From the NCBI GenBank assembly GCA_964406675.1, contig CAYOSP010000001.1, positions 133,440-194,739 of the forward strand: 61,300 bases of DNA. Reading direction: 5' to 3'. This DNA is from an uncultured Eubacteriales bacterium (GTDB taxonomy: Bacteria; Actinomycetota; Coriobacteriia; Anaerosomatales; JAUVQN01). Below the pieces are notes generated by a model that worked only from the letters and a program-made list of their open reading frames with translations, had not been told where the DNA came from and made no database searches. The position numbers and the translations under genes were made by a program. Of this stretch, positions 11,463 through 29,853 are shown one piece after another; the first letter of the stretch is position 1, and each line of letters opens with the position of its first letter.

Positions 11463-11476
11463 TCGATTGTCACCTC

Positions 11477-12154: not shown

Positions 12155-12219
12155 ACGGTCACCTTTCTCTTCTGACGGTACTCACGCCGGGCACTCCGCG
12201 CTGACTCACGTTTGACTGC

Positions 12220-15571: not shown

Positions 15572-15710
15572 GACGTCGTCTCCGGATCCGCGGGGACGCC
15601 GGACCGCCCCCGATGTCGCGTCGCGTCCCGCGCACTATAGCACGTGTCCTGGTAGGGTTAGAATCCTTGGGCGGAGCGCAAAATGCCAGGTGAGACAGGA
15701 GGAGCGCGGG

Positions 15711-16628
15711 GTGACCGAGGACCGATTGGACGCCCGCACCCTACTCGCCGTCGGGACGACGCTGGTCTTCTGGGCGTCGGCGTTCGCGGGCATACGGGCC
15801 GGACTCGAGGCGTACGGGCCCGGGCAGGTCGCGCTCCTGCGCTTCCTCACCGCGTCCGCGGTGCTCGCCGTGTACGCCCTCGTCACCAGGATGCGGCTTC
15901 CGAGAGCCGGGGACGTGCCCGCCATCGTCCTCGCGGGGTTCCTCGGCATCACGGTGTATCACGTGGCGCTCTCCTTCGGCGAGCGGACCGTCACCGCGGG
16001 AGCCGCGAGCCTGTTGATCGCGGCCGGACCGATCTTCACGGCGATGCTCGCGGGCGTGTTCCTCGGCGAGCGGCTGACGCTGGCCGCATGGGGCGGGATC
16101 GCTCTCAGCTTCGTCGGCGTGGCGCTCATCGCGCTCGGAGAGGGCGAGGGGTTGCGGTTCGAGTCCGACGCGCTGCTCGTCTTGCTGGCGGCGCTCTCGA
16201 CGAGCATGTACTTCGTGTTCCAGAAGCCGTATCTGGCCCGGTACGGCGCGCTCGAGTTCGCCGCGTACGCGATCTGGGCGGGGACGGTGTTCATGCTCCC
16301 GTTCGCCCCGGGCCTGGTCCGGCAGCTGCCGTCCGCGCCGCTCGCACCCACCGCGGCCGTCGTGTACCTGGGGGTCTTCCCGGCCGCCTTGGCCTACGTG
16401 ACCTGGACCTACGCGCTCTCGCGGGCCGGCGCCTCGAGGATCACCACGTTCCTCTACCTGTCACCGGTGCTCGCCATCGCGATCGCCTGGGTGTGGCTCG
16501 GCGAGGTGCCGGGCCTGCTGTCGGTCGTGGGCGGAGCGCTCGCGGTCGCCGGTGTGGTGGTGGTCAACTCGCAGCGCAAGGGCGGTCGACGAAGGATATC
16601 GGGTAGGATGTGTACTAAGCTCCCGTAA
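15711..16628 (+). CDS. EamA/DMT family transporter (305 aa)
   Basis: About 10 hydrophobic helices in two EamA-like halves. GTG at 15711 is preceded by AGGAGG. The upstream part of the 482-aa track ORF is antisense to the antiporter gene. Confidence 0.85.
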   Translation: MTEDRLDARTLLAVGTTLVFWASAFAGIRAGLEAYGPGQVALLRFLTASAVLAVYALVTRMRLPRAGDVPAIVLAGFLGITVYHVALSFGERTVTAGAASLLIAAGPIFTAMLAGVFLGERLTLAAWGGIALSFVGVALIALGEGEGLRFESDALLVLLAALSTSMYFVFQKPYLARYGALEFAAYAIWAGTVFMLPFAPGLVRQLPSAPLAPTAAVVYLGVFPAALAYVTWTYALSRAGASRITTFLYLSPVLAIAIAWVWLGEVPGLLSVVGGALAVAGVVVVNSQRKGGRRRISGRMCTKLP

Positions 16629-16656
16629 TCTCTCGGGCCGTCCCTCGTCATGATCC

Positions 16657-16688
16657 GACGTAGGGCGGATGTGACGTAGGGCGGATGT
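16657..16688. repeat. perfect 16-bp tandem duplication (GACGTAGGGCGGATGT x2)
   Basis: Read directly at 16657-16672 and 16673-16688, about 40 nt upstream of the next start codon. Confidence 0.9.
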
Positions 16689-16726
16689 GGCCCCGGGGGG
16701 CGTTCGGCGCCGGAGCAGGAGAGGCG

Positions 16727-17038
16727 ATGGACATGTACTCGCACGATGACATCATGCTGCTCGTGGAACGGTCGCGCGAGCACTCCGGCATCCTGGACGA
16801 GGTCGCGAGCGGCCTCCACAGCCGGGACCCGGAACTCGCGGGAGATTGCGCGGAGTTGATGCGTTCGGTGGCGGAACAGGCGTCGGACGTCGTGCGCCCC
16901 TACGCGCGGTGTCTCGTAGAGGCCGCCGAGCACCCGGACGAGCGCGTGCGCGACGAGGCGCTCAGGGCGATGGCCATCCTGGGCGTCTCGGCGGACGACG
17001 TGGCGGACGAGAGCGAGCCACGGTCGTCGGACGCATGA
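16727..17038 (+). CDS. small HEAT-like helical-repeat protein, hypothetical (103 aa)
   Basis: ATG 16727 is preceded by GGAGAGG. ...CLVEAAEHPDERVRDEALRAMAILG is a HEAT-like motif. Confidence 0.5.
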   Translation: MDMYSHDDIMLLVERSREHSGILDEVASGLHSRDPELAGDCAELMRSVAEQASDVVRPYARCLVEAAEHPDERVRDEALRAMAILGVSADDVADESEPRSSDA

Positions 17039-17053
17039 TCCCGGTGGAGGGGA

Positions 17054-17500
17054 TCAGCCCTCCTCGCCGTCTTCCTCGTCGACGACCTCCACGAGCTCCA
17101 GTTCGAAAATGAGCTCCTCGCCGGCGAGCGGGTGGTTGAAGTCCAGCGTCGCTTCCTCGCCTTCGATCTCGGCGACCGTGGCCGCGAGCTCCTGGCCGTC
17201 CGGCGTCACCGCGGTGAGCATGTCGCCTTCGCCCGCCTCTTCGGGGAGCCTGTCCTTCGGGACCTGCTGGACGGCGCCTTCCTGGCGCTCTCCGTACGCG
17301 TTCTCCGGCGGGATGATGACCTGAGCCTTCTCGCCTTGCTCCATCTGCGAGACGGCCTCGTCGAATCCGCTGATCACGGAGCCTTTGCCGATCTCGAACT
17401 CGATGGGTTCTCCACGCTCGTAGCTCGAGTCGAACTGCTCGCCGCTGTTCAGCGTGCCCTTGTAGTGTACGCGCACGCGGGTGCCTTCCTCGATAGCCAT
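17054..17500 (-). CDS. slyD: FKBP-type peptidyl-prolyl cis-trans isomerase, SlyD-like (148 aa)
   Basis: MAIEEGTRVRVHYKGTLNSGEQFDSSYERGEPIEFEIGKGSVISGFDEAV..., plus an insert-in-flap region and DFNHPLAGEELIFELELVEV. The tail is acidic and not His-rich. GAGGAGG lies upstream of the ATG. Confidence 0.85.
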   Translation of the reverse strand: MAIEEGTRVRVHYKGTLNSGEQFDSSYERGEPIEFEIGKGSVISGFDEAVSQMEQGEKAQVIIPPENAYGERQEGAVQQVPKDRLPEEAGEGDMLTAVTPDGQELAATVAEIEGEEATLDFNHPLAGEELIFELELVEVVDEEDGEEG

Positions 17501-17737
17501 TCGTGCCTCCTCTGATAGTGGGCGGTCCGGTGACCGTAACACAGCGGCCACTAGGCCATCCTTCCCGTTATCCGCCGTCGGGTTCGACCGCACCCCGTCG
17601 GGGCATATACTGGATGGATACCCCGAAAGGTATTCACACCGCCCCTCACGGGGCACGCGGGCCGGAGCTTCCTCCCCCTCCCCTCCTCCGGCCCGCGCTC
17701 TACGTCCTGAAGCGGGATCCTCTTGAGAGGACCGGAT

Positions 17738-17769
17738 GCCGAAGAGGGCATGTGCCGAAGAGGGCGTGT
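17738..17769. repeat. 16-bp tandem repeat GCCGAAGAGGGC(A/G)TGT x2, followed by related purine-rich sequence
   Basis: Read directly at 17738-17753 and 17754-17769, immediately downstream of the Mrp-like operon stop at 17804. Confidence 0.85.
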
Positions 17770-17803
17770 GTCGAGGAGCGTGCGCGGAAGAGCACGTGCG
17801 CGA

Positions 17804-20440
17804 TCAGGCGAGCAGGGCGTAGACGAAGAGCAGGAGTACCGCTACCACGATCCCCACGTTGAGCCCTATGTCCCGGGCGTAGCGCTGGACCGCCAACCGG
17901 AGAGCCGTCCGACTCTCATCGGAGACGTGCTCCTCGATCATCCAGGGTATGCGCTCCTGGGTGACGGACTCGCCGACCACGCGTCCCAGATCCGAGACCC
18001 ATCGGCCGAGCCGCTCCACCATCGTCAGGTTCTCGTGATGATACGCGCTCAGTCGGCTGACCTCCGCGGGGACGACTTCCCGGGAATCCGGCTGCCACGT
18101 GGGGATCGACCGTCGGATGCGCCGGTCGAAGCGCTCCTCGCTCATGATGACGTTCATCTGGTGCGAGACGGAGCGGATGACGTTCTCGCCTTTCATCCGC
18201 GGCTCCGCGTACTCGAGCGCTACCCGCGCGATGCGTTCCCTGAACTCGCTCAGTTCCGGCATCACCCTCGACATCGCCGCCTCGATGGGCTCCACGCGGC
18301 CACGTTTCACGAGTCTGGTGAGGACGTCCATCCGCTCTCGGAAGAGCCGTCCGGCCATGTACGACGACAGGTCGCGCACCGAGTCGATGAACATGCGGCG
18401 CTCCTCGTCGTGCATGTCCTCGCGGTTCTGAGCGACGTGCAGGGCGTCGGTCACGGCCTTCCTCACGGTGGCGTGTCGCTCGTCGTCCATCACGATGTAC
18501 GCGGAATCGATGAAGCGCTGGTGTCTCAGCCCGGAGGCGCCGGTGCCGAGCGTGACGATGGAGCGCCGCCAGGACCGCGAGGCGTGGTCGAGGCCGGCAC
18601 GCAGGGTGGTGCGCGTGTCGTTGACGGCTACGGACGCGGCGTCGAGGTACGCGGCGTAGCCGCGATCCATCGCGACGGCGCCCTGCCGCGATAGTCTCGC
18701 GCCCTGCCGGTAGAAGTAGTCCACGGAGAACCACTCCGGGAAGTGGGCATGGAACGCCCCCGTCTTGATGCCGACCACCACGATGGTGATCCCGATCCCG
18801 AACGCCCAGGCCACGGAGGCGAGGTTCTCGCCGGTGAACAGGACGAACTCCTCGAGGATGTCGCCGTGCAGCCCCCAGACGTGCAGGCCGGGCACGAAGA
18901 TCCCCTCGAGGAGGAGCTGCGGCCACAGTCCGAGCACCACCAGCGGGACGGCGAGGATCCCCATCGCCACGAGCATGCGCGGCGGCGCCTCTCGGACCTC
19001 GCCGAGGTCGGTCTTCTCCTTGCCGAGGAAGACGAAGAGGATGAGCTTGATGAAGGACGCGGCGGTCCCACCGCAGGTCACGATGTATATCTTCTCGGCG
19101 AAGGACAGCGCTCCCGCATGCCAGGCGGGGACCATCGCCTCGGCCGCGTGCGCGAGGTGCTCCGCGTGCTCGATCGATTCGACGAGCGCGTGATGGATGA
19201 GGCACTTGCTCACGAACCCGTTGAACAGCGGCACGCCGGTGATGCCGAACGCGGCGACGAGCGTGAAGATGAAGGTGAGGGGCATCTTCTTCCACAGACC
19301 GCCGAGCTTGTACATGTTGAGCTCGCGGGTCCGGAAGAACACCGCGCCCACCCCGAGGAAGAGCAGCCCCTTGAAGAGCGCGTGATTCACGATGTGGTAC
19401 AGCCCGCCGGCGAACCCCATGGCCCCGTGGGCGCCCAGGTATCCGGCGGCGCCGATCCCGGCCAGGATGAAGCCCATCTGGCTCACGCTGTGGTAGGCGA
19501 GCATGCGCTTCGCGTTCTCCTGCAGCAGCGCGAGCACCACGCCGACGAACATGGTCGCGATGCCGATCCACAGCACGGCGTGGCCGAGTTGGCCGGCGAA
19601 GTGCCACAACCCCTCGGAGAGCTCCTCGACCACCGGCGGGCGGAAGATCGCGGTGACGACGCGGAAGATCCCGTACGCGCCCGCCTTGATCATCACGCCG
19701 GAGAGCAGCGCGCTCGCCGGCGACGGCGCGACGGGATGCGCTTCGGGCAACCACACGTGCACCGGGAGCATGCCCGCCTTCACGCCGAACCCGAGGATCA
19801 TCAGCCCGGCCGCCGACCAGCGCATGACCTCGGCGGCCTCCTCGGCCCCGAACGGGCCGATCGTGCCGCCGGAGCCCATCGCGTATACGAGGAAGATGCC
19901 CGCCACCAGGCTGAACCCGCCGACCAGGTTCATCCACAGGTACTTCACCGAGGCCTTCTTCGCCTCGGGGGTCTCGGTGTGGACGACCATCATGTACGAG
20001 GTCAGGCCCAGCGCCTCGAAGAACAGGTAGAGCGTGATCAGGTCGCCGGCGAGCACGACCCCGAGGTTGGCCGCGAGCACGATCAGGTTGAACACGTGGT
20101 AGCGGTCGCGCTTCTTCTCGTGCTGCATGTAGTCGCCCGCGTACAGGGTGGCGAGCATCCACACGAACGAGGTGAACAGCGCGAAGAGCATCCCGAACGG
20201 GTCGACCTCGAAGGTGAGCTCGCCGAAGAGCCCGGGGAGCGTGCAGCCGATCCGGTGGTGCTCGGCGATCTGGGGGATGAGCGCTACCGCGCCGAGGAAG
20301 GTGATCGCCGTGACGACCGTGGCGTACCAGTCCCGCACCGTCTCCGAGAGACGGCCGAGGAACGGGACGAGGGCGGCGGCGAGCGCGGGCACCAGGACCA
20401 GCAGCGCGGGGAGCGGGCTGTATGCGAGGTGTCCTTCCAT
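17804..20440 (-). CDS. mrpA: NuoL/MrpA-N-terminal-like antiporter subunit with a ~290-aa hydrophilic insertion before the last TM helix (878 aa)
   Basis: Motif GVKAGMLPVHVWLPEAHPVAPSPASALLSGVMIKAG. About 15 TM helices up to residue ~560. A charged, helix-prone segment spans ~565-858. A terminal TM helix is GLNVGIVVAVLLLFVYALLA. GGAAGGAGGG lies 6 nt upstream of the ATG. Confidence 0.8.
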   Translation of the reverse strand: MEGHLAYSPLPALLVLVPALAAALVPFLGRLSETVRDWYATVVTAITFLGAVALIPQIAEHHRIGCTLPGLFGELTFEVDPFGMLFALFTSFVWMLATLYAGDYMQHEKKRDRYHVFNLIVLAANLGVVLAGDLITLYLFFEALGLTSYMMVVHTETPEAKKASVKYLWMNLVGGFSLVAGIFLVYAMGSGGTIGPFGAEEAAEVMRWSAAGLMILGFGVKAGMLPVHVWLPEAHPVAPSPASALLSGVMIKAGAYGIFRVVTAIFRPPVVEELSEGLWHFAGQLGHAVLWIGIATMFVGVVLALLQENAKRMLAYHSVSQMGFILAGIGAAGYLGAHGAMGFAGGLYHIVNHALFKGLLFLGVGAVFFRTRELNMYKLGGLWKKMPLTFIFTLVAAFGITGVPLFNGFVSKCLIHHALVESIEHAEHLAHAAEAMVPAWHAGALSFAEKIYIVTCGGTAASFIKLILFVFLGKEKTDLGEVREAPPRMLVAMGILAVPLVVLGLWPQLLLEGIFVPGLHVWGLHGDILEEFVLFTGENLASVAWAFGIGITIVVVGIKTGAFHAHFPEWFSVDYFYRQGARLSRQGAVAMDRGYAAYLDAASVAVNDTRTTLRAGLDHASRSWRRSIVTLGTGASGLRHQRFIDSAYIVMDDERHATVRKAVTDALHVAQNREDMHDEERRMFIDSVRDLSSYMAGRLFRERMDVLTRLVKRGRVEPIEAAMSRVMPELSEFRERIARVALEYAEPRMKGENVIRSVSHQMNVIMSEERFDRRIRRSIPTWQPDSREVVPAEVSRLSAYHHENLTMVERLGRWVSDLGRVVGESVTQERIPWMIEEHVSDESRTALRLAVQRYARDIGLNVGIVVAVLLLFVYALLA

Positions 20441-20469
20441 GCTGCGCCCTCCTTCCGGTCAGTCGTCCG

Positions 20470-22071
20470 TCACCCGATGACGGCCTCGGCCACCATCCGC
20501 GCGAGCGAGAGAGGCAGCCCCGGCAGCCAGGCGAGCACGCCCAGCAGGACCGTGATGATCGCGCCGGCGAGAGCCGGGACGAGCATCGAGGGAGGCGCCT
20601 CGAGCCGCCGCCGGCCGCCGCCGGGCGGCTCCTTCTCGCTCGCATCGCTCGCCGTGCCTGTCTCGCTCGTCTCGCCCGAGCCGCCCGAGCCGCGCGTCTC
20701 TTCCGCCTCGCTCGCTCCGCCCGGTGCGGTTGTCTCGCTCACCGCCGGACGCTTGAAGTATGCCGAGTACACGATCGGGAGGAGGTAGCCCGCCGCGAGC
20801 AGCGCTCCGAGCAGGAGCACGATGAGGTAGAGGGGCTGGCCCGCCTCCACGATCCCCATGCCCAGGTACCACTTGCTCACGAAGCCCGACAGCGGCGGCG
20901 TGCCGATCATCGCGAGTGAGGCGACGGTGAACGCCGCCATGGTGAGCGGCACCCGCTTGCCGATGCCCGCCATGCGGCTCACCTTGCGGATGCCGAGACG
21001 TTTGATGAAGATGCCGGCACAGAGGAACAGGGTGCCCTTCATGAACGCGTGGTTGGCGATGTGCACGAGCGAGCCCTGCGTCGCCTCCAGTCCGAGCAGG
21101 GCGGCTCCGAGCAGGACGTATCCCATCTGCGAGATCGTCGAGTACGCGAGTCTGCGCTTGATGTCGTCCTGGGTGAGCGCGATGATCGCCGCGAGCAGGA
21201 TGGTCGCCGCGGCGAGGTAGCCGAGCCAGCGGGTCACGTCGAGCTCCGCGAGCAGGCCGGCGCCGAACACGTGGTACAGCACTCGGAGGATGCCGAAGCT
21301 GCCCGCGGCCACCATCACGCCCGAGAGTACCGCCGAGAACGGCGCGGGCGCGGCCGGGTGAGCGTCCGGGACCCAGCCGTGCAGCGGCACGATCGCCGCC
21401 TTCACCCCGAAGCCGGCGACGAAGCACCAGAAGACGGCGATGAGTACGGTACGGCCGGCCTCGAGCGTGAGGAGCGTCCCTCCCCCGAAGTCACCGTTGC
21501 CGGCGATGAAGTACGTGATCAGGATGGCGAGCAGCACGAGTCCGCCGCCGATGAGGATGTACACGATGTACTTCGTGCCGGCGGCCATCGCCTCGCTCGT
21601 CTGCTCGTGGACGACCAGCGGGTACGTGAGGACCGAGAAGAGCTCGTAGAAGACGAGCAGGGTCAGCAGGTTGCCCGCGAACGCCACGCCCGCCGTCCAG
21701 GCGAGCGCCATCATGAGGAACGAGAAGTATCGCGCCTGCCGATGTTCGTCGGCCATATATCCGGACGAGTACGGGACCGCGAGCAGCCACATGAAGGCGA
21801 CGGTGAGCGCGAAGAGCACCCCCAGCGCGTCGGCGCGGAAGTCGAGCCAGATGCCGGGCGTGATCTGCACCAGTTGCAGGTGCGGGATCTCCCCGCCGAT
21901 CACGGGGGAGACCAACGCGACCACGCCGGCCGCGCACAGCGCGCAGATCGCCGTCAGCACGACGTCGCGCATCGTCCTGGACACGCGCGACATCGGCACG
22001 GTGAGCGCGGCGCCTGCCAGCGGCAGCGCCACCACCACCGGCATCACCCATGCCATGTACGACGTCGTCAC
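20470..22071 (-). CDS. mrpD: MrpD/NuoN-like antiporter subunit, third copy (533 aa)
   Basis: Motif GVKAAIVPLHGWVPDAHPAAPAPFSAVLSG. Polytopic, with a Ser/Thr/Glu/Gly-rich loop before the last helix. Confidence 0.85.
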   Translation of the reverse strand: MTTSYMAWVMPVVVALPLAGAALTVPMSRVSRTMRDVVLTAICALCAAGVVALVSPVIGGEIPHLQLVQITPGIWLDFRADALGVLFALTVAFMWLLAVPYSSGYMADEHRQARYFSFLMMALAWTAGVAFAGNLLTLLVFYELFSVLTYPLVVHEQTSEAMAAGTKYIVYILIGGGLVLLAILITYFIAGNGDFGGGTLLTLEAGRTVLIAVFWCFVAGFGVKAAIVPLHGWVPDAHPAAPAPFSAVLSGVMVAAGSFGILRVLYHVFGAGLLAELDVTRWLGYLAAATILLAAIIALTQDDIKRRLAYSTISQMGYVLLGAALLGLEATQGSLVHIANHAFMKGTLFLCAGIFIKRLGIRKVSRMAGIGKRVPLTMAAFTVASLAMIGTPPLSGFVSKWYLGMGIVEAGQPLYLIVLLLGALLAAGYLLPIVYSAYFKRPAVSETTAPGGASEAEETRGSGGSGETSETGTASDASEKEPPGGGRRRLEAPPSMLVPALAGAIITVLLGVLAWLPGLPLSLARMVAEAVIG

Positions 22072-22084
22072 GGCGGATCACCCC

Positions 22085-23560
22085 TCACATGCGGAAGACG
22101 AACTCGACGGCCGCCCTCGCCAGCGACAGCGGCAGCCCCGGCACTTCGGCGAAGCTGCCGAGGAGGATCACGTACACGGCGCAGACGACGGTGGGAATGA
22201 GCAGCGTCGGCCTCGCCTCGCGCATCTCGACGTGTGCGTCCGGGTCGGTCTTGAAGAACGCGAGGTAGACGATGGGCAGCCAGTAGGCCGCGTTCAGCAG
22301 CGAGCTGATCACCATCACCACCACGAAGATCGGCTGCTCGGCCTCGAGCGCCCCCAGCGACAGGTACCACTTGCTGATGAACCCCGAGAAGATGGGCAGG
22401 CCGATGAAGCTGAGTGCGGCGATCGTGAACGCGGTCATCGTCCAGGGCATCCGGTAGCCGATCCCCGCGAGCTCGTGCACGTTCGTCTTGCCGGTCGTGC
22501 GCTGTATGGCGCCCGCGACGAAGAACATGGTGATCTTCTGGAAGGCCTGGTTCGCGATGTGCACGATCGCGGCCAGGGCTGACAGCGGGGTGAGCAGCGC
22601 AGCGCCGAGCACGATGTAGGAGAGCTGCGAGATGGTCGAGTATGCGAGCCGGCGCTTGAGGTTGTCCTGCATGATCGCGATCACGGAGGCCGCCACGATG
22701 GTGAACCCGGCGAGGTAGGCGAGCGGCAGGCCCAGCCCGAGCTCGGAGAGCAGGTCGACGCCGAACACGTTGTAGATGATGCGCAGGATGCCGAACGCAC
22801 CCGCTTTGACCACCGCCACCGCATGTAGCAGCGCGCTCACCGGCGTGGGCGCCACCATCGCCGAGGGCAGCCATCCGTGCAGCGGCATGATGCCGGCCTT
22901 CACCCCGAAGCCCGCCATGAAGCAGACGAAGAGCACGGTCAGCATGCCGCTGCCGACGTCCATGGTGAGGATGCCGGGCTCGGCGAGGGTGAGCGTGCCG
23001 GCCGCCTGGAAGGTGATCGCCGTCCCGATGAGGATGAAGGCCCCGCCGGTGAGCGTGTACACGAGGTACTTGCGCCCCGCCTTCATCGCCTCGGGTGTCT
23101 CGTCGTGTATGACCAGCGGATACGTGCAGATGGTGAGCATCTCGTAGAAGAGCAGCAGCGTGAGCAGGTTCTCGGAGAAGGCCAGGCCGACGGTGGTCGA
23201 CACGCAGAGCGCGAAGAATCCGAAGAACCTCACCTTGGCGTGCTCGGGCTCCATGTAGCCGATGGCGTACACGGTGGTCAGCAGCCACAGCGTCGAGGAC
23301 ACGAGTGCGAAGAACATCCCCAGCGCGTCGGCACGGAACCCGAGACCGATGCCCGGGGTGAACTCGATGAGCCTGAACACGTAGACCGTGCCGTCCATCG
23401 CGCCCGGCAGCATGCTGATGACCACGGCGAACTTCACCAGCGCGGCGGTGAGACTCCAGAAACGCCGCCAGAACGGCCGCGCCCCGAAGCCGAACACGAG
23501 ACCGGCGCACGCCAGCGAGAGCAGCGGCGCGAGCATCGGTCGCAGGTCGTGGACCTCCAC
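22085..23560 (-). CDS. mrpD: MrpD/NuoN-like antiporter subunit, second copy (491 aa)
   Basis: Motif GVKAGIMPLHGWLPSAMVAPTPVSALLHAVAVVKAG. Polytopic. Confidence 0.85.
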   Translation of the reverse strand: MEVHDLRPMLAPLLSLACAGLVFGFGARPFWRRFWSLTAALVKFAVVISMLPGAMDGTVYVFRLIEFTPGIGLGFRADALGMFFALVSSTLWLLTTVYAIGYMEPEHAKVRFFGFFALCVSTTVGLAFSENLLTLLLFYEMLTICTYPLVIHDETPEAMKAGRKYLVYTLTGGAFILIGTAITFQAAGTLTLAEPGILTMDVGSGMLTVLFVCFMAGFGVKAGIMPLHGWLPSAMVAPTPVSALLHAVAVVKAGAFGILRIIYNVFGVDLLSELGLGLPLAYLAGFTIVAASVIAIMQDNLKRRLAYSTISQLSYIVLGAALLTPLSALAAIVHIANQAFQKITMFFVAGAIQRTTGKTNVHELAGIGYRMPWTMTAFTIAALSFIGLPIFSGFISKWYLSLGALEAEQPIFVVVMVISSLLNAAYWLPIVYLAFFKTDPDAHVEMREARPTLLIPTVVCAVYVILLGSFAEVPGLPLSLARAAVEFVFRM

Positions 23561-23563
23561 GGC

Positions 23564-25057
23564 TCAGCCCCCTATCGGCGCGAGCAGCGCGTTCACCGCA
23601 GGCTCGATGAAGCTCAGCGGTATCCGTCCGAACACGCCCATCACCAGGCACAGCGCGGCGAGCACGAGGATCGGGGCGAGCATGCTCCCCGGGACCTCGC
23701 GCACCGCCGCCATCTCCGAGGTGACCGGTTCCTTGAAGTAGAAGGCGTTCACGATGCGGATGTAGTAGACGAAGATGAGCAGAGCGCCGAAGACCAGGAC
23801 GAAGGCGAACAGCGGCTTGCCCGCCTCGATGGCTCCCAGCGTGATGTACCACTTGCAGAGGAAGCCCGCGGTCGGCGGTATGCCGACGATCGAGACCGCT
23901 CCGATCGCGATGGCGGCCGATGTGATCGGCATCGCCTTGCCGACCCCCTGCAGGTCCCGCAGTCTCCGGTGGCCGGTCTGGTGGATGATCGCGCCGGCGC
24001 CGAGGAAGAGCGTCGCCTTGATGAGTGCGTGGTTGAAGATGTGCACGCTCGCGCCGATGATGCTCAGTTGCGAGGCCAGCCCGAGTCCCATGAAGATGTA
24101 GCCGATGTTCGAGATGGTCGAGTAGGCGAGGATGAGCTTGAGGTCGTCCTGCACGATGGCGAATAGCGCGCCGATGATGATCGAGGCCGCGCCGAGCCAC
24201 GTGAGCGCGGTGTTCAGTCCGTCCATGTCCAGCACGCCGGACTGGTAGTACATCTGGTAGAGCCGCAGCATGCCGAGCACGCCGACCTTGACGACCAGTC
24301 CGGAGAGGATCGCGCTGACCGGGCTGGGCGCGATCGCGTGCGCGTCGGGCAACCAGACGTGCATCGGGAACAGTGCCGCCTTGACGCCGAACCCGAGGGT
24401 GAGGCCGGCGGCGGCGACCGCCGCCGGGGTGGCGGGCACGCCTCCGAGCCGTGCGGCGATGTCACCCATGTTGAGCGTGCCGGTGAGCGCGTAGAGGAAG
24501 CCGGTGCTGAAGAGGATCATCAGCGAGGAGACGGCACCCATGATCAGGTACTTGAACGCCGCGAGTTCGGCCACGCCCTTGCCGGTCACCGCCACGAGCG
24601 CGTAGCTGGAGAGCGAGAGGATCTCGACGAAGACGAAGAAGTTGAACAGGTCCCCGGTGACGATGACCCCGATCACGCCGCCGAGATCGAGGAGGACGAG
24701 CGAGTAGAAGTAGGGGACGCGCGCCTCGGGGATGGCGTGCGGCACGTAGCGCCGGGAGAACCACAGGGAGAGCAGGCCGATCAGGCACACCACTCCCACC
24801 GCGGAGGAGAACTCGTCGAAGCGCAACTCGATGCCGAACGGGGGCTCCCAGTCGCCCATCTCATAGGAGAAGGGGCCGTCGATCGCGACCTTCGCGATCA
24901 GGAATCCGCAGGCGACCGAGGCGAGCCCCATGACCGCCATCGCCCAACGCCAGGCGGTCTCGGCGCTGCGCCTGCCCACGATCGGGGCGACGGCGGCGCC
25001 CGCGAGCGGGAGCGCCACCGCCGCGATCAGCCACTGCGAGCTCAGCAGCGGCCCCAT
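23564..25057 (-). CDS. mrpD: MrpD/NuoN-like antiporter subunit, first copy (497 aa)
   Basis: Motif GVKAALFPMHVWLPDAHAIAPSPVSAILSGLVVKVG. The start lies 1 nt after the mrpC stop. Confidence 0.85.
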   Translation of the reverse strand: MGPLLSSQWLIAAVALPLAGAAVAPIVGRRSAETAWRWAMAVMGLASVACGFLIAKVAIDGPFSYEMGDWEPPFGIELRFDEFSSAVGVVCLIGLLSLWFSRRYVPHAIPEARVPYFYSLVLLDLGGVIGVIVTGDLFNFFVFVEILSLSSYALVAVTGKGVAELAAFKYLIMGAVSSLMILFSTGFLYALTGTLNMGDIAARLGGVPATPAAVAAAGLTLGFGVKAALFPMHVWLPDAHAIAPSPVSAILSGLVVKVGVLGMLRLYQMYYQSGVLDMDGLNTALTWLGAASIIIGALFAIVQDDLKLILAYSTISNIGYIFMGLGLASQLSIIGASVHIFNHALIKATLFLGAGAIIHQTGHRRLRDLQGVGKAMPITSAAIAIGAVSIVGIPPTAGFLCKWYITLGAIEAGKPLFAFVLVFGALLIFVYYIRIVNAFYFKEPVTSEMAAVREVPGSMLAPILVLAALCLVMGVFGRIPLSFIEPAVNALLAPIGG

Positions 25058-25058
25058 G

Positions 25059-25412
25059 TCACTCGGCCCCCCACAGCTCGTCCGACTCGAGCGTCCCGTA
25101 GCGCCGGTAGATGCGCACCATGAGGGCGAGAGCGAGCGAGGTCGTGCTCACCGCCACGACGATACCGGTGAGGATCAGCGCCTGCGGCAGCGGGTTGGCG
25201 AACGGGGCGGCGGCGCCCTCGCCGACGATCGGGGCGTCGCCGTCGGCGATCATGCCCGCCGCGATGATGAAGGCGAACACGGCGGTCTCCATGATGTTGA
25301 TCCCCATGAACTTCTTGATGAGGTTGTGCTTGGAGATGACCGTGTACAGCCCGATGAGGAACAGCACCACGGAGGCCACGTAGTCGAGGTTCATCCAGAG
25401 TCGCTCGATCAT
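25059..25412 (-). CDS. mrpC: MrpC/MnhC (NuoK-like) subunit (117 aa)
   Basis: MIERLWMNLDYVASVVLFLIGLYTVISKHNLIKKFMGINIMETAVFAFII... has three TM helices. There is an ATGA overlap with the upstream cistron. Confidence 0.85.
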   Translation of the reverse strand: MIERLWMNLDYVASVVLFLIGLYTVISKHNLIKKFMGINIMETAVFAFIIAAGMIADGDAPIVGEGAAAPFANPLPQALILTGIVVAVSTTSLALALMVRIYRRYGTLESDELWGAE

Positions 25413-26122
25413 GTGCGACCCTCCATCCGCCAGAACAGGGAGGCGACGATGGATCCGCCGCCGACGGCGATCCCCGCCTCGAGGACCAGCATCGCGAGTT
25501 CGCGGACCAGCTCGTAGTCCTCGGCGCGCGGGAGCTCCAGGTAGGAACCCAGCCACAGCAGACCGGATACGCCGACCACGAAGAAGGCGAGGACCGCGGC
25601 CGCGTGCAGCCAGGTCCGGACGGCGCGCGGGAGGAGTCTCGCGGCCTGGCGGCGGCCGAGGACGAGGCTCACCACGATGACGACCGAGCCGAGGACGGCG
25701 CCGCCCTGGAAGCCCCCTCCGGGAGTGAGGTGGCCGTGCATGACCAGGGAGATGGAGAACAGCACGATGAAGGGCGCCGTCAGGCGCACCACGAACGCGA
25801 GTACCGGACTGACGGGCATGGTCGGTTCGCCCGAGCCTTCGTCCTCGTCGACGGTCCTCGCGGCGAGTACCGCCATCACCGCGGCGAGCGCGGTGAAGAT
25901 GACGGTCACCTCGCCGTAGGTGTCGAAGGCGCGGTAGTTGAGGATGACGTCGGTGACGATGTTCGGGCCGCCCGCCTCCTCGGCGCCCTTCTCGAGGTAG
26001 CGAGGCACCACGTGGGTGTACGCGGGGGTGTCGGTGGCGCCGATCTCCGGCAGCTCGGCGACCGCGGCGAGCAGGGGGACCGCGGCGACGAGCAGCAGCG
26101 CGATGATCGAGGCGCGTCTCAA
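25409..26122 (-). CDS. mrpB: MrpB/MnhB-like subunit (fused MbhE+MbhF-like, ~237 aa)
   Basis: MnhB-domain motifs NIVTDVILNYRAFDTYGEVTV and HGHLTPGGGFQGGAVLG. The start is placed at TTG 26122, overlapping the upstream stop (TTGA), and is uncertain. Confidence 0.75.
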   Translation of the reverse strand: MRRASIIALLLVAAVPLLAAVAELPEIGATDTPAYTHVVPRYLEKGAEEAGGPNIVTDVILNYRAFDTYGEVTVIFTALAAVMAVLAARTVDEDEGSGEPTMPVSPVLAFVVRLTAPFIVLFSISLVMHGHLTPGGGFQGGAVLGSVVIVVSLVLGRRQAARLLPRAVRTWLHAAAVLAFFVVGVSGLLWLGSYLELPRAEDYELVRELAMLVLEAGIAVGGGSIVASLFWRMEGRT

Positions 26123-26361
26123 CGTTCTCGCCTCGTGGTGCGGGCTATCGCCACCAGGAACAGCACCGTGGTCACTCCCGCGCCGACCGCGGCCTCGGTG
26201 AGCGCCACGTCGGGTGCACCGCGGTGCTGCCACACGAGGCACATCAGGAGGCTGTACGCGGAGAAGATGATCGCCGCCGCGAGCAGGTCCTTGGTGCGCA
26301 CCACGGTGAGCGCCGCGATGATCAGCAGTGACAGCAGGACTACGTCGAACGCGCGGCTCAT
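26119..26361 (-). CDS. MrpA C-terminal / MbhD-like (DUF4040) small membrane subunit (80 aa)
   Basis: MSRAFDVVLLSLLIIAALTVVRTKDLLAAAIIFSAYSLLMCLVWQHRGAPDVALTEAAVGAG... The APDVALTEAxVG block is typical of MrpA-C/MbhD. AGGAGGG lies upstream of ATG 26361. Confidence 0.75.
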   Translation of the reverse strand: MSRAFDVVLLSLLIIAALTVVRTKDLLAAAIIFSAYSLLMCLVWQHRGAPDVALTEAAVGAGVTTVLFLVAIARTTRRER

Positions 26362-26747
26362 CGTGATCCCTCCTGTGTCGTGGGTGTCTCCGTCGTCGCG
26401 GAGGCAGTCGCGCCGGGAGCCGAGGCGGATCCCTTGCGCCAGGCCTTCAGCCCGCTCCGGTACGCGGCCCGTGCGAGCGCGTGCCCGGCGGTGGGGCTGG
26501 ATATGAACACGAACACGGCGAGAAGGATGATCTTGAGCGAGACCGCGTCCGGCCCGTGCGCCACCGCGAGCGCGAGCAGCATGGTGCCGGCGCCGAGCGT
26601 GTCGCACTTGGTCGCCGCATGCGTGCGCGAGTAGAAGTCGGGGAGTCGGAGCAACCCCAGCGTCCCCACGAGGAAGAAGAACGCTCCGATGGCCGCGAGC
26701 ACGATGGTGGCCGCCTGGACGACGGGGTTGTCCGCCCACCCGGTCAT
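26358..26747 (-). CDS. mrpG: MrpG/MnhG subunit (129 aa)
   Basis: LRLPDFYSRTHAATKCDTLGAG is the hallmark motif. There is an ATGA overlap with mrpF. Confidence 0.85.
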   Translation of the reverse strand: MTGWADNPVVQAATIVLAAIGAFFFLVGTLGLLRLPDFYSRTHAATKCDTLGAGTMLLALAVAHGPDAVSLKIILLAVFVFISSPTAGHALARAAYRSGLKAWRKGSASAPGATASATTETPTTQEGSR

Positions 26748-27040
26748 GTCCGCTCGCCCTCCCTCGGGCCCATGACGTCCTCGAGGCGCCCACTCTCGAG
26801 ATACCTCGACGCGGCGATCGTCAGCGCGAGGCTGAGGAGGGCGTACACGAACGCCACGTCCATGAACAACGAGCGATCGAAGGCGAACGACAGGAGCACC
26901 AGCACCACCAGGGTCTTGGTGGTCACGATGTTGACGGCGAGGATGCGGTCGACCACCGTGGGTCCGGCATACGCGCGGTACAGGCACAGCAGCGCGTTGA
27001 GCAAGAGGAAGATGGCGGCGCCCCAGAAGAACCAGCTCAT
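26744..27040 (-). CDS. mrpF: MrpF/MnhF subunit (98 aa)
   Basis: MSWFFWGAAIFLLLNALLCLYRAYAGPTVVDRILAVNIVTTKTLVVLVLL... Confidence 0.85.
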   Translation of the reverse strand: MSWFFWGAAIFLLLNALLCLYRAYAGPTVVDRILAVNIVTTKTLVVLVLLSFAFDRSLFMDVAFVYALLSLALTIAASRYLESGRLEDVMGPREGERT

Positions 27041-27549
27041 CCGGAGCCTCCTCGAGTCGCGTCCGCGCCGTGCTCGCCCGACTCGAACACCCGGGCGATG
27101 CGCCTCTCGAGCAGGTGCTCCTCGATCCCCCCTCGGAATTCGGGGCCCAGGCAGTGCACGAGCAGCGCATCCTCACCGAGGTCGACGGTGAGTGTCCCCG
27201 GCGTGAGGGTGATGGAGTTCGCGAGCGTGACCTTCGAGATATCCCGATGCAGGGTGGTGTGCGCCGTGACGACCTCCGGATCCACCGGCAGACGGGGATC
27301 GAGCACGATCTCGGCGACGTAGAGCGCGGCCTTGACCACCTCGGCGAGCAGCCAGGGCACGTACGCCACGAAACGGAGCGCCTCGCCCAAGCCGATATGC
27401 GGCAGGTCCTCACGCCAGAGCGCTCGGGACGCCCACACGGCGACCAGGACGGACAGCACGGCCCCCAGCGCCAGGTCCATCGGGTCCAGCGTGCCCGCGA
27501 GGAGCACCCAGAAGGTGAACAGCCCTATGGTCAACCACCAGGTACGCAC
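27037..27549 (-). CDS. mrpE: MrpE/MnhE subunit (170 aa)
   Basis: ...ANSITLTPGTLTVDL is the hallmark motif. GTG 27549 lies 1 nt after the stop of the GGDEF-like gene. Confidence 0.8.
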   Translation of the reverse strand: MRTWWLTIGLFTFWVLLAGTLDPMDLALGAVLSVLVAVWASRALWREDLPHIGLGEALRFVAYVPWLLAEVVKAALYVAEIVLDPRLPVDPEVVTAHTTLHRDISKVTLANSITLTPGTLTVDLGEDALLVHCLGPEFRGGIEEHLLERRIARVFESGEHGADATRGGSG

Positions 27550-27550
27550 G

Positions 27551-28468
27551 TCACGCGTCCCCCTTCTGGGGGGCTCCCCGCGGTACGTGCCGCGTGTCCG
27601 CGGCGGGTCGCGCGTCGGCCCTGGTGGCGGCGATCGAGCCGCGCCGCACCCGATCGCCGCCGTCTCGGGCCGCGCCACGTGCCGCCTCCAGCGCCGCGAG
27701 TACGAGTTGCTGCTCGTCCTCCCCCTCCTCCGGATACGAGGCGACACCCACGCTCGTCGTCAGCCGCACCACCGGCTCGAGCTCGTCTCCCTCGAACTCG
27801 GCGTCGCGCACCACACCCACCACGCGTTCCGCGGCGGTCGCGGCGCCCTCCATGTCGGTGAACGGGAGGATCAACGCGAATCCGTCGCCGTGGCGCGCGA
27901 GGACGTCGGTGTCGCGCACGGAGATCCGGATGACGTCGGCCAACCGAGCGGCGAGCATACCGGCGCGCTGGTGCCCGAAGCGCTCGTGATACGCGCTCAT
28001 GCCGTCGGCGCGCAGGATCATCACGGAGAGCGAAGTCTCGTATCGGTCGGCCCGGTGGGTCTCCTCGGTCAGGCGATCGAAGAGGCAGTCCTCCGTGTAT
28101 ACGCCCGTGACCGGATCGCGCACCGCGCACGCGCGCAACTCCCTCATGCGCGCGTCCCGTTTCGCGGCGTACGCGCCGACCGCGAGGCCGACGACCACGA
28201 AGACGGACAGGCCGAGCAGCACGGGGCCGGAGGGGGCCGAGCCCTGCAACTCGATGGAGAGCACCGAAGCGGCCGCGACGGCGAGCGCGGACGTGACGAG
28301 CGCCCCGGCGCCTCGGTGCGTGATGGCGGAGATGACGATCGGGATACCGAACAGCGGCCAGTACAGTTCGAGGTCCCCGGTGATGACGACCAACACCGCG
28401 ACGAACGCGAGGGTCGCCGCGACCGCCAGCCAACCCCGCAGGCCGATCCCTTCATGCACGGTTCGCAC
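27551..28468 (-). CDS. membrane protein with a degenerate GGDEF domain (GDGF in place of GG[D/E]EF; RxxD I-site-like motif retained), 305 aa
   Basis: About 4 TM helices span residues 12-100. The GGDEF fold follows: RDPVTGVYTEDCLFDRL ... SVMILRADGMSAYHERFGHQRAG ... RDTDVLARHGDGFALILP ... TTSVGVASYP. GTG start at 28468. Confidence 0.8.
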   Translation of the reverse strand: MRTVHEGIGLRGWLAVAATLAFVAVLVVITGDLELYWPLFGIPIVISAITHRGAGALVTSALAVAAASVLSIELQGSAPSGPVLLGLSVFVVVGLAVGAYAAKRDARMRELRACAVRDPVTGVYTEDCLFDRLTEETHRADRYETSLSVMILRADGMSAYHERFGHQRAGMLAARLADVIRISVRDTDVLARHGDGFALILPFTDMEGAATAAERVVGVVRDAEFEGDELEPVVRLTTSVGVASYPEEGEDEQQLVLAALEAARGAARDGGDRVRRGSIAATRADARPAADTRHVPRGAPQKGDA

Positions 28469-28816
28469 CCCCCCAAGGACATCCCGGGGTGTCGCTCACC
28501 GCTCGCAGTCGATAGCGCCGCGTGGGACGTGGGTGCCGGCGTAGTCGAGTAGGCTTCGCAACCGGGTTCGTCGGCGCTGCCCGCGCGTCCGGCGCGGCCC
28601 GTCTGGCTGGACGGGCGGTTCGACATCCCTTGGATGCCGGACGACGTCGCGGATCCTTGCCGCTGACACACGGCTCATGAATCCTCACGTCCTCGATATT
28701 CGGTCACCCGAAGGGCCCCTCCTGCATAATTCTACGCCAGATTGCTACACGCTCGTTCATCTCGCGTGTCCTTCGATGTGCCGGGCGGGGGCCTGCCCCG
28801 GGCTGCGGCGCCGTCC

Positions 28817-29524
28817 TCAGTCGAAGTAGGGCTCGTCCAGGTCCCCGGTGTTCGAGTAGCCCCTGCGTTCCCAGAATCCCTCGTACTCGTCGTCGTCCGA
28901 GAGCTCGATACGCTCGACCCAGCGCACCCACTTGTAGCCCCACTTGTCCTCGGCCATGAGCTGGAAGGGGAAGCCGCGGTCGACCGGCAGGGTGACGCCG
29001 TTCATCTCGTAGGCGAGCAGGATATCGTTGTCGACGTGGTACTCGAGCGGGAGCGAGGAGGTGTAACCGTCGGCGGCGTGCAGGATGACGGTGTCGGCCT
29101 CGTCGGCGGGCTCCGCGAGCGCGATGAGGTCGCGCATGAGCACGCCCTCGACGAGCACCGTCGCGTCCCATCCCTCGACGCAGTAGAGGGTGAGCGCCTT
29201 CTCGTAGGCCGGGAGTCCGGCGACGACCTCGTCGTACGTGAGCGTGGTCGGCGTCGTGACCAGACCGTCGATCCGGAGACGATACTCGTCGACGTCGACC
29301 TGTGGCGGACCGTTGATCGAGTTCTCACGGAAGTCCGTGACGGAGTCGAGCGGCATGCCCTCGTACTCGCGGATCTCCACGTCCTGTAGCCGGGTCGCGT
29401 CGTCCCCGTCCGGAGCCGGCGTGCCCGCGCAGCCGATGAGCGGCGCGAAGAGGAGCGAGAAGAGGAGTGTCGCGAAGAGCGCGGAGGCGGGGAAGGCTGT
29501 GGGGCGGTCGATGATACGGCTCAT
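28817..29524 (-). CDS. sulfite-oxidase-family molybdopterin-binding oxidoreductase domain protein with lipoprotein-type signal (235 aa)
   Basis: LTLYCVEGWDATVLVEGV and FPFQLMAEDKWGYKWVRWVERIEL. The N-terminus MSRIIDRPTAFPASALFATLLFSLLFAPLIGCAG carries a lipobox (LIGC). There is an ATGA overlap with the upstream gene. Confidence 0.8.
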   Translation of the reverse strand: MSRIIDRPTAFPASALFATLLFSLLFAPLIGCAGTPAPDGDDATRLQDVEIREYEGMPLDSVTDFRENSINGPPQVDVDEYRLRIDGLVTTPTTLTYDEVVAGLPAYEKALTLYCVEGWDATVLVEGVLMRDLIALAEPADEADTVILHAADGYTSSLPLEYHVDNDILLAYEMNGVTLPVDRGFPFQLMAEDKWGYKWVRWVERIELSDDDEYEGFWERRGYSNTGDLDEPYFD

Positions 29525-29853
29525 GAGACGGAGAACCCGCTCTCGCCGCGAGGCTCCTCGTAGTCGACCTCGACCCCGTCCACCGTCGCGCGCTCGGGGC
29601 CTTCGTGCATCCACTCGACCATGCGTCGCACCGCGGCGGGTCCGCCCTCGAAGACGGCCTCCACGCGGCCGTCGGGGCGGTTCGCGACCCAGCCCGACAC
29701 GCCCAGTTCGGACGCCCTCTGACGGGTGCTCGCCCGGAAGAAGACCCCCTGCACGCGTCCGGACACGAGCACGTGTGCGCGGGTCCGTCCGGTCCGGCCG
29801 GTCTCGGAGCCGGGGGAGTGCCCCTCGGCGTTCCCGGTGTGGTGATCCGTCAT
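29521..29853 (-). CDS. acyP: acylphosphatase (110 aa)
   Basis: VSGRVQGVFFRASTRQRASELGVSGWVANRPDGRVEAVFEG is the signature. ATG 29853 was chosen. Confidence 0.85.
   Translation of the reverse strand: MTDHHTGNAEGHSPGSETGRTGRTRAHVLVSGRVQGVFFRASTRQRASELGVSGWVANRPDGRVEAVFEGGPAAVRRMVEWMHEGPERATVDGVEVDYEEPRGESGFSVS

Follow-up and report, generated by a model that had tools for sequence, protein, structure and literature searches.

A redox-free Mrp-type operon with four antiporter-like subunits and a degenerate GGDEF gene in Coriobacteriia, a probable group 3 cation/proton antiporter

How the number of antiporter-like modules in a membrane complex relates to the number of ions moved per cycle, and what part the lateral helix plays, are questions common to Mrp antiporters, to MBH (a hydrogenase bound to the membrane) and to complex I. 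Both arise at a locus in the genome of an uncultured Coriobacteriia bacterium (contig CAYOSP010000001.1), from which we analyzed a stretch of 61,300 nucleotides, referred to here as the window. On its minus strand, at positions 17804-27549, lie ten mrp cistrons that include genes for four antiporter-like subunits. The original prediction, made from the DNA letters, took this operon to be a stand-alone ion-translocating membrane arm whose energy source or partner was not evident. Is it an orphaned respiratory arm, or is it an antiporter that is complete in itself? We consider it probable that the locus encodes a complete, self-sufficient group 3 Mrp (cation/proton antiporter 3, CPA3) exchanger with a raised H+/cation ratio and regulation by cyclic di-GMP (c-di-GMP), and not an orphaned respiratory arm. 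The supposedly missing energy source would then not be needed, because a secondary antiporter runs on the proton motive force.

The open reading frames (ORFs) of the minus strand from 17.8 to 28.5 kb and their start codons were re-derived, and the ten co-directional cistrons, joined by 4-nucleotide overlaps or by gaps of 29 nucleotides or less, came out at the coordinates first proposed. The operon begins with mrpE (MbhA-like, 170 amino acids, 27037-27549, GTG start; Pfam MNHE, 111.7 bits), mrpF (MbhB-like, 98 amino acids, 26744-27040; MrpF_PhaF) and mrpG (MbhC-like, 129 amino acids, 26358-26747; PhaG_MnhG_YufB, 98.7 bits). These are followed by an 80 amino acid MbhD-like subunit with three transmembrane (TM) helices that corresponds to TM17-19 of MrpA (26119-26361; MbhD, 81 bits) and aligns to about positions 600-690 of the NCBIfam MrpA models. 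Next comes a protein of 237 amino acids with a TTG start (25409-26122; NCBIfam PRK12507, 153 bits). The MrpB-like assignment first given to it holds for its MnhB domain (residues 107-202), but the protein also carries MbhE (residues 32-86), the equivalent of MrpA TM20-21, fused as in MbsE. The small genes end with mrpC (MbhG/NuoK-like, 117 amino acids, 25059-25412), which matches Oxidored_q2 with 90.5 bits as well as the NCBIfam MrpC models. Four large genes complete the operon: D1 (497 amino acids, 23564-25057; Proton_antipo_M, 220 bits), the extra antiporter-like subunits D2 (491 amino acids, 22085-23560) and D3 (533 amino acids, 20470-22071), both also matching Proton_antipo_M, and a terminal A-like subunit of 878 amino acids (17804-20440; Proton_antipo_M, 192 bits).

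The expected family assignments were borne out for every cistron, since each of the ten exceeds the curated Pfam cut-off for its family, with Proton_antipo_M matched four times. Mrp subunit models also rank top throughout NCBIfam, yet they do so under their own equivalog cut-offs. MrpA is divided over three genes, and the gene order is E-F-G-A(C-part)-B-C-D-D-D-A(N-part). All subunit domains of an Mrp antiporter are present and the genes are co-oriented in one operon. Overlaps of 4 nucleotides of the ATGA/GTGA type occur at five junctions (E/F, F/G, G/MbhD, MbhD/B and B/C), which suggests translational coupling of the small genes, and the junctions after mrpC are gaps of 1, 3, 13 and 29 nucleotides, in that order. 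Ribosome-binding sites of the GGAGG type precede most start codons. Group 3 Mrp systems are characterized by an irregular gene order, the lack of a full mrpA and frequent duplication of mrpD (Ito et al. 2017, PMC5703873; Haja et al. 2021, PMC8415708). The operon in the window shows all three features, with an irregular order, an MrpA split in three and several mrpD genes.

Do all four large subunits look like working antiporter modules? The signature G-x-K-A-x-x-x-P-x-H-x-W-[LV]-P followed by A-P-x-P-x-S-A, noticed at the outset, is indeed present in all four proteins. In order to compare the channels themselves, positions were mapped from Escherichia coli NuoL, NuoM and NuoN, with the known positions verified, onto 19 sequences per orthogroup. 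Each of the four subunits has the TM5 Glu, TM7 Lys, TM11 His/Lys and TM12 Lys, and the channel residues are invariant within each orthogroup, apart from a single A-like sequence of the 19 that has Ser in TM12. A TM8 Lys is present in D1, D2 and the terminal subunit. D2 combines this Lys with a TM8 His of the MrpA/NuoL type and has its own invariant His-to-Gln substitution in TM11, whereas in D3 the TM8 Lys is replaced by Ala, with no compensating His, in all orthologues. D3 otherwise keeps the TM5 Glu, TM7 Lys, TM11 His-His-Lys and TM12 Lys without variation. The original prediction had allowed that several D-like copies might be decaying paralogues lacking the channel residues. This can be ruled out, given the invariant residues and the four maintained orthogroups, and the residue pattern is that of purifying selection on differentiated paralogues rather than decay. 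A low-complexity acidic loop rich in Ser, Gly, Thr and Glu (ETTAPGGASEAEETRGSGGSGETSETGTASDASEKEPPGGG) lies before the last TM helix of D3, at residues of about 450-500, and is 16% conserved among orthologues compared with 60-80% elsewhere in D3.

Among solved structures, MbhH of the Pyrococcus hydrogenase gives the top score with each of the four large subunits. D1 reaches 243 bits against MbhH and 207-213 bits against bacterial MrpD, and on these scores it is clearly a true MrpD/MbhH orthologue. D2 and D3 (161 and 174 bits) are more diverged and are 45% identical to each other. D2 is the most conserved protein of the operon (approximately 75% identity), and a homologue search with it gave at least 120 matches, those listed being without exception orthologues with at least 71% identity. 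The terminal subunit scores 218 bits against MbhH, 161 against MbsH' and 149 against MrpA, and its top NCBIfam model is the MbsH'-type PRK08668. Its assignment as MrpA therefore stands in part: MrpA chains are the best match by fold, but by sequence the protein is nearer to MbhH and MbsH' than to classical MrpA. A neighbor-joining tree places D1, D2, D3 and the terminal subunit in one orthogroup apiece, with members from both the close and the distant clade of operons described below. Because each orthogroup spans both clades, the four-module state is ancestral and maintained. The claim that the operon is of the Mrp type, is free of redox genes, has its MrpA split and keeps all four antiporter-like subunits intact is thus upheld by Pfam, channel residues and neighboring genes alike.

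The small subunits carry the corresponding signs of a cation path. MrpE has an invariant ANSITLTPGT motif in 20 sequences, and invariant motifs are likewise found in MrpF (GPTxxDR, including the Asp of the proposed Na+ path), MrpG (RTHAATKCDT and SSPT), the MbhD-like protein (APDVAxTEAAVGAG) and MrpC (NIMET/PQALILTG). In the Mrp structure paper, D35f, H42g, P86g and P114 of MrpE lie on the Na+ path or are essential or conserved (PMC7419157), and the small-subunit motifs correspond to these residues, having been matched by motif rather than by structural alignment. The channel and cation-path residues that mark an Mrp antiporter are therefore conserved throughout, except for the TM8 Ala of D3. 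Mrp systems specific for K+ or Ca2+ do exist, as reported for Thermomicrobium roseum (PMC5703873), and the operon could in principle exchange another substrate pair (K+/H+ or Ca2+/H+), or some of its modules, for example D3, could be structural spacers, as the loss of the TM8 Lys would permit. We regard this as very unlikely, given that conservation extends to the acidic and Pro motifs along the proposed Na+ path and that the unvarying TM5 Glu, TM7 Lys, TM11 His-His-Lys and TM12 Lys of D3 would be unexpected in a spacer.

If the operon is a functional unit, it should recur with its order intact. When species-representative genomes were scanned, 20 close loci came up, all in metagenome-assembled genomes (MAGs) of uncultured Coriobacteriia/Actinomycetota. 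The full E-F-G-MbhD-B-C-D1-D2-D3-A order is present in 18 of them, and in a nineteenth (L016) the contig ends inside the terminal gene; L017 is a fragment and L020 has its large genes split by frameshifts. Identity per subunit ranges from 43 to 82%, with MbhD and D2 highest, and the terminal subunit is 53-67% identical in most close loci and 40% identical in the frameshift-split L020. The same gene order in 19 independent genomes, at 45-80% identity per subunit, places the operon far beyond chance. Overall, the ten-gene order was seen in about 25 fetched loci, mostly Coriobacteriia/Actinomycetota MAGs, and well over a hundred more full-length relatives of the 878 amino acid protein are present in the protein database. 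The distant loci L053, L055 and L057 (44-46% identity) have the same ten-gene order, so that the E-F-G-A'-B-C-D-D-D-A arrangement, whose recurrence the original prediction had proposed to check, is found both in the close clade and beyond it. The L057 operon adjoins a gene for a TonB-dependent receptor, which suggests that its host is diderm. The same operon is also found outside the scanned set, in L049, which belongs to Parvivirga hydrogeniphila Es71-Z0120. This cultured thermophile is a member of the order Anaerosomatales (OPB41) that oxidizes H2 and formate and reduces Fe(III) (PMC9686372). The words "Mrp" and "antiporter" do not occur in its genome paper (PMC9686372). The operon is common in subsurface lineages of the OPB41/Anaerosomatales type.

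Two of these loci show irregularities. L055 has two E-F-G-MbhD-B-C operons with four large genes each in tandem on one metagenomic contig, at 3074-12709 and 13646-22257. In the second, the third large protein has 520 amino acids and no Pfam hit on record and the fourth has only 577 amino acids; the first two large proteins of this operon join D1 and D2 in the tree, and its other two diverge. In L020 (CAVOWY010000006.1, 3-6137), tblastn breaks the genes for D2, D3 and the terminal subunit into several pieces that are out of frame with one another, suggesting either frameshifts caused by errors of a long-read assembly or a pseudogenized operon. A recent horizontal-transfer island was also considered as an origin of the operon in the window and is not supported, the G+C content of 0.67-0.70 resembling that of the remaining window.

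The terminal subunit was first grouped with the other large proteins as one of four of 490-880 amino acids. It has their antiporter signature, but an unusual C-terminal extension had been overlooked. Residues 1-520 (18881-20440) form a 14-TM antiporter core of the MbhH/MbsH'/MrpA-N type, TM15 spans residues 537-560, and residues 561-878 with the stop codon (17804-18760) make up the extension. A single-chain AlphaFold model has a predicted local distance difference test (pLDDT) score of 84.9 overall, with the core mostly above 90. In this model, TM15 is followed by a helix of 60 residues (573-632), four to five helices packed as a bundle (637-777), a disordered or flexible linker, further helices (807-856) and a C-terminal TM anchor (858-877). 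Modeled alone, the helical bundle at 637-777 reaches a pLDDT of 94-99. The extension of about 320 residues is thus all-helical apart from the linker, is restricted to the clade and ends in a TM anchor. The stretch of about 300 residues between TM15 and the last TM contains 39 Arg, 24 Glu and 15 Asp, and with this Arg/Glu-rich composition it should be cytoplasmic. Its long helices are moderately amphipathic by hydrophobic moment, which fits packing on a membrane surface and packing within a soluble domain alike.

When the whole model was compared by Foldseek, MrpA chains ranked best, and the topology of TM15, lateral helix and last TM is shared with NuoL, the N-domain of MrpA and MbsH'. The extension itself has no Pfam match, no sequence match in the PDB and no significant Foldseek match, the search returning merely generic BAR-like or coiled helices with E>0.1. 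Among 1.84 billion representatives, the domain occurs in 36 clusters, always at the C-terminus of such proteins or as fragments. The helices outside the bundle add up to approximately 100 residues, or an estimated 150 Å, which on the model would be about the length required to pass three neighboring modules. In one related locus, L054 (GCA_015657915.1, 10001-11956), the terminal subunit is called as 651 amino acids with most of the extension missing, and a natural truncation, a frameshift or an assembly error are all possible.

A second element had been overlooked at the other end of the operon, which had been described as having ten genes. The ten cistrons stand, but a further gene lies 1 nucleotide upstream of mrpE (27551-28468, minus strand) and encodes a protein of 305 amino acids with a GGDEF domain (Pfam GGDEF, 76 bits) behind three to four N-terminal TM helices, as judged by hydropathy. 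Because its stop codon lies 1 nucleotide before the mrpE start, the operon most likely has eleven cistrons. A GGDEF-type gene occupies the same upstream position in all 19 related operon loci of the close clade (tblastn, 31-44% identity) and is called as overlapping or abutting mrpE in four loci (L049, L050, L054 and L056). Upstream of the gene, a 348-nucleotide intergenic region (28469-28816) is the presumed 5' leader and promoter region. A scan for consensus promoters and terminators across 16900-29700 gave nothing above shuffled expectation, and the operon boundaries therefore rest on gene spacing and synteny. Likewise, an Rfam search of the whole window, with additional permissive settings on the 5' leader, revealed no riboswitch upstream of the operon, including the c-di-GMP type.

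Active diguanylate cyclases have a GG(D/E)EF A-site, and none of the 20 aligned sequences (the window protein and 19 orthologues) contains one. In the window protein the A-site reads RHG-DGF, and in orthologues it reads GPEEF, SPTEF, GSESF or KDETF, among others. Alignment with solved GGEEF cyclases confirmed the register and showed that the A-site in the window has a one-residue deletion and a Glu-to-Gly change. In all 20 sequences, however, the RxxD I-site that characterizes degenerate-GGDEF receptors of c-di-GMP is kept five residues before the A-site (RDTD in the window protein), so that c-di-GMP binding is predicted by motif, and an EFEGD motif specific to the family is invariant across the same alignment. 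The protein thus appears to be a cyclase-dead putative c-di-GMP receptor. Receptors of the PelD/PopA type also have a non-canonical A-site with a retained RxxD I-site, and a membrane machine carries their GGDEF domain or is acted on by it. The likeness of the window protein, as a putative receptor, to these systems lies in the features of the GGDEF domain. We found no association of a GGDEF gene with an Mrp operon in the open-access literature searched. A further gene with a possible role in c-di-GMP turnover lies approximately 8 kb from the GGDEF gene. It encodes a 579 amino acid HD_5/HD protein (36900-38639, plus strand) with an HHxxxDGxGYP-like motif, of the HD-GYP type and possibly a c-di-GMP phosphodiesterase, and is preceded by a HEAT-repeat protein (35090-37249).

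Whether the operon could instead be part of a respiratory enzyme depends first on its surroundings. Within approximately 10 kb, both in the window and in L049, L050 and L053-L057, no NuoB/C/D/H/I-like, MbhJ-N-like or hydrogenase-like gene is present, and no hydrogenase, Nuo, formate dehydrogenase or Rnf gene was seen in the parts of the window that were scanned or read. The claim that the operon is free of a redox module thus held both in the window and in the gene tables of its relatives. Mbh, Mbs and Mbx complexes encode redox and adaptor subunits together with their Mrp-like genes, and none lies within about 10 kb on each side of the operon. NuoA, NuoH, NuoJ and the peripheral arm of complex I are also lacking from the operon, and Mrp E, F, G and B are present instead; the only Nuo-type families in the operon are the shared NuoK-like and antiporter-like ones. 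Downstream of the last gene, a spacer of approximately 300 nucleotides holding two GC-rich hairpins is followed by an FKBP gene, a small ORF, an EamA transporter and a protein with Na_H_Exchanger and Usp domains. Upstream of the GGDEF gene, the 348-nucleotide leader is followed by an Oxidored_molyb lipoprotein-like gene, an acylphosphatase and a CNNM/CorC transporter. The neighbors named in the original prediction, the FKBP gene downstream and the molybdenum cofactor protein farther upstream, are therefore as described. In relatives, the downstream neighbors are all different (MFS, cNMP-binding, acyl-CoA dehydrogenase, PfkB, methyltransferase and others), indicating that the operon alone is the unit of conservation.

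It is still conceivable that the operon encodes the membrane arm of an Mbh/Mbs/complex-I-like enzyme, with a peripheral redox module of the hydrogenase, NuoBCDHI or formate dehydrogenase type, encoded elsewhere, docking on the terminal subunit and driving the pump. The best scores of the large subunits against MbhH, with MbsH' of the sulfane-sulfur reductase next for the terminal subunit, lean this way, as does the pattern of the separate MbhD and the MbhE+MrpB fusion, which is that of MBS, a sulfane-sulfur reductase bound to the membrane (PMC8415708). In addition, relatives are H2/formate-oxidizing anaerobes with extra nuo-like loci that have no NuoEFG (PMC9686372). However, Mbh, Mbs, Fhl and Nuo systems cluster their redox and membrane genes together, whereas there is no NuoH/MbhM-like adaptor and no NuoB/C/D/I-like gene in or beside the operon in the loci whose gene tables were read, and the flanking genes are not conserved. 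The nuo loci of the cultured relative have their own NuoL/M(/N) and are not orphans in search of an arm (PMC9686372). Furthermore, the MBH redox module sits at the position of the MrpA-N-type subunit, which is occupied here. Taken together, we find a redox-driven enzyme unlikely.

How, then, might a self-sufficient group 3 antiporter with four modules work? MrpE, MrpF, MrpG, the MbhD-like subunit, the MbhE+MrpB fusion and MrpC would form the module for translocation of the cation, most likely Na+, and for coupling. The four antiporter-like subunits would stand in a row beside this cation module in gene order, D1, D2, D3 and terminal subunit, with the last standing in for NuoL, MbsH' or the N-domain of MrpA. 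The row may be strapped together by this subunit's TM15, by its long helices on the cytoplasmic side and by the TM anchor at its C-terminus, the strap being lengthened and broken by the helical-bundle insert and spanning three neighbors instead of one. The proton motive force, mainly its electrical part, would push protons inward through up to four modules, and electrostatic coupling along the row would result in export of Na+ (or K+), as in current Mrp models (PMC7419157). With two extra modules, the number of H+ per cation could exceed the approximately 2 assumed for ordinary Mrp. In energy-limited anaerobes of the often alkaline or saline subsurface, such an exchanger could clear the cell of Na+ or make its cytoplasm more acidic when the driving force is low, and operated in reverse it could interconvert H+ and Na+ gradients. 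The dead-GGDEF protein would be a c-di-GMP-responsive regulator or accessory subunit that ties activity or assembly to c-di-GMP. The subunit order in the membrane and the binding of c-di-GMP are likewise predictions. A more specific version can be drawn, in which four serial modules give an H+/Na+ ratio of approximately 4-5, the row is held by a uniquely long strap that bears a domain, and the bundle docks the dead-GGDEF subunit as a c-di-GMP on/off switch, which would make this the first such Mrp; we put it forward tentatively, as a rather doubtful extension.

The same machine could also have a different job in place of Na+ detoxification or pH homeostasis, namely conversion of an H+ gradient built by complex I or an uptake hydrogenase into a Na+ gradient, or the reverse, that feeds Na+-dependent A/V-type ATPases or transporters. 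Such a role has been proposed for Mrp/Mnh modules in Thermococcus, Methanosarcina and Atribacteria, and H+ to Na+ conversion by Mrp beside membrane hydrogenases has been discussed (PMC6469976, PMC8415708). Conversion is where a gearing of H+ to Na+ that is high and fixed would count most, and cultured relatives, which are low-energy lithotrophs, encode ATPases of the F-type as well as two of the A/V-type (PMC9686372). However, no linkage to ATPase genes is seen in the loci read, and the sequence by itself fits Na+ expulsion by a self-sufficient exchanger equally well, so that we see gradient conversion as a possible but not a likely main function.

Several observations weigh against our preferred interpretation of a self-sufficient, geared and c-di-GMP-regulated antiporter. 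Antiport activity, stoichiometry and ion specificity are predictions for every operon of this kind, and D3 may fall short of a full fourth proton path, having no protonatable residue at the TM8 position. The strap role is deduced from topology and from a single-chain AlphaFold model that is partly of low confidence, for an extension that has no relative in sequence or fold. Binding of c-di-GMP would hang on one motif, and the GGDEF gene is absent from the distant loci L053, L055 and L057 that have the same ten mrp genes; it is therefore best seen as a clade-specific addition and not as a core or essential part. The search for a redox module covered 61 kb of the genome, and a partner gene could lie elsewhere. 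Parvivirga hydrogeniphila has a second, incomplete nuo-like locus (NuoACDHJKLM), although this has its own L and M (PMC9686372). Finally, deletion of the stand-alone Mrp of Pyrococcus furiosus gave only a mild phenotype, and its driving force was called unknown (PMC8415708).

That Mrp of P. furiosus, mrpEFGBB'CD (PF1147-53), is redox-free, is known from genetic work on a deletion (Haja et al. 2021, PMC8415708), and is among the closest described arrangements. Both operons start with EFG, lack a full-length MrpA, have the MrpA C-part as small proteins followed by MrpC and MrpD, and have no redox genes, and the archaeal system is presumed to be an H+/Na+ exchanger, as we propose for the operon in the window. 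The P. furiosus operon differs in having a single antiporter-like subunit and no MrpA-N-type terminal subunit, compared with four and a long extension here. The fusions also differ, with MbhD+MbhE in MrpB of P. furiosus and MbhE+MrpB in the window, and the P. furiosus system is archaeal and has no GGDEF gene. With MBH and MBS the operon shares the order of the membrane-part genes and the best matches of its large subunits (MbhH, with MbsH' next for the terminal one), and with MBS it also shares the arrangement of MbsD, MbsE (an MbhE+MbhF fusion) and MbsG (PMC8415708). Both of those complexes have MbhJKLMN-type redox subunits in the operon and one (MBH) or two (MBS) antiporter-like subunits, whereas the operon in the window has no redox subunits and four antiporter-like ones. 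The original prediction had read the EFG-first order with a split MrpA as the layout of Mbh/Mbx complexes; the order is indeed shared, but it is not specific to them and is a known group 3 layout (PMC8415708, PMC5703873).

The group 1 and 2 Mrp complexes of Anoxybacillus flavithermus (6z16), Bacillus pseudofirmus (7qru) and Dietzia (7d3u) share the domain inventory and the channel and cation-path residues with the operon. They have the order ABCDEFG, a single-chain MrpA, two modules and one lateral helix, whereas in the window MrpA is in three genes, two D-type modules are added and the lateral region is approximately 300 residues long. Duplicated mrpD genes are known from Microbacterium sp. 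TS-1 (mrpFGBCDDAE) and from cyanobacteria (mrpCD1D2EFGAB; PMC5703873). These group 3 operons share an irregular order and more than one mrpD, and TS-1 is also actinobacterial and has D before A. As compared by their descriptions, they have at most three antiporter-like genes, and no set of three D genes plus a terminal subunit, no extension and no GGDEF gene is reported. Enlarged arms are also described in complex I (Yu et al. 2022, PMC9040806, with reference to Chadwick et al. 2018), where the "2M" form has four modules, Complex_I_3 of Candidatus Manganitrophus has five, and the lateral helix of the terminal subunit is lengthened so as to cross the extra module. The claim that the arm is longer than that of complex I therefore holds for canonical complex I but not for these four- and five-module variants. 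They share the enlarged arm and the lengthened lateral element with our operon and are read as having altered ion or energy stoichiometry; they differ in being redox-driven, with NuoA-K and peripheral arms, whereas the operon in the window is redox-free, has Mrp E/F/G/B and carries an inserted helical domain. In the open-access literature searched, no Mrp with four antiporter-like subunits or with a domain-bearing C-terminal strap was found. Given that EFG-first, redox-free Mrp operons and enlarged arms are already known, the operon is best filed as an undescribed variant, a four-module Mrp with an extension and a GGDEF gene.

As a redox-free system with four modules in place of the usual two, the operon offers a simple setting in which stoichiometry can be related to module number. 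It has paralogue-specific invariant substitutions to work with, such as D3 without the TM8 Lys and D2 with both His and Lys, and a lateral element of approximately five times the usual length. Its presence in the cultured thermophile Parvivirga hydrogeniphila makes biochemistry and cryo-electron microscopy feasible. A geared four-module exchanger, if real, would be a natural experiment on how module number sets stoichiometry across the complex I superfamily, and the conserved linkage of the operon with a dead GGDEF protein whose I-site is intact would, if borne out, widen the reach of c-di-GMP to primary ion homeostasis in Actinomycetota. For lineages of the OPB41/Anaerosomatales type, energy limitation in the subsurface together with alkaline or saline fluids makes the economics of ion gradients central.

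The remainder of the window contains several other features. The exchanger 2 kb downstream of the operon (13439-15571, minus strand) is a single-gene cation/proton exchanger with Na_H_Exchanger and C-terminal Usp domains. In L054, the operon is also surrounded by Na_H_Exchanger, Oxidored_molyb, acylphosphatase and EamA genes, indicating wider synteny with the window. Between 10000 and 12200, the G+C content drops to 0.61 from approximately 0.70. This region has a tRNA gene (10631-10702, plus strand) and two minus-strand ORFs without a Pfam match (10818-11576 and 11477-12154), and it may be an integration hotspot or foreign DNA. At 527-9433 (minus strand), an ORF of 2968 amino acids combines Glycoamylase, GH94 supersandwich and GH94 catalytic domains, which is the architecture of a cyclic beta-1,2-glucan synthase (Cgs/NdvB-like), here in an apparently actinobacterial genome of approximately 70% G+C. 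Cyclic beta-1,2-glucan synthases are best known from Proteobacteria. On the far side of the window, an M-box (Mg2+) riboswitch (52361-52566, minus strand, 122.8 bits) lies directly upstream of an ORF at 50389-52458 that by its translation encodes an MgtE-like magnesium transporter, followed by an NRAMP-like ORF at 49125-50639.

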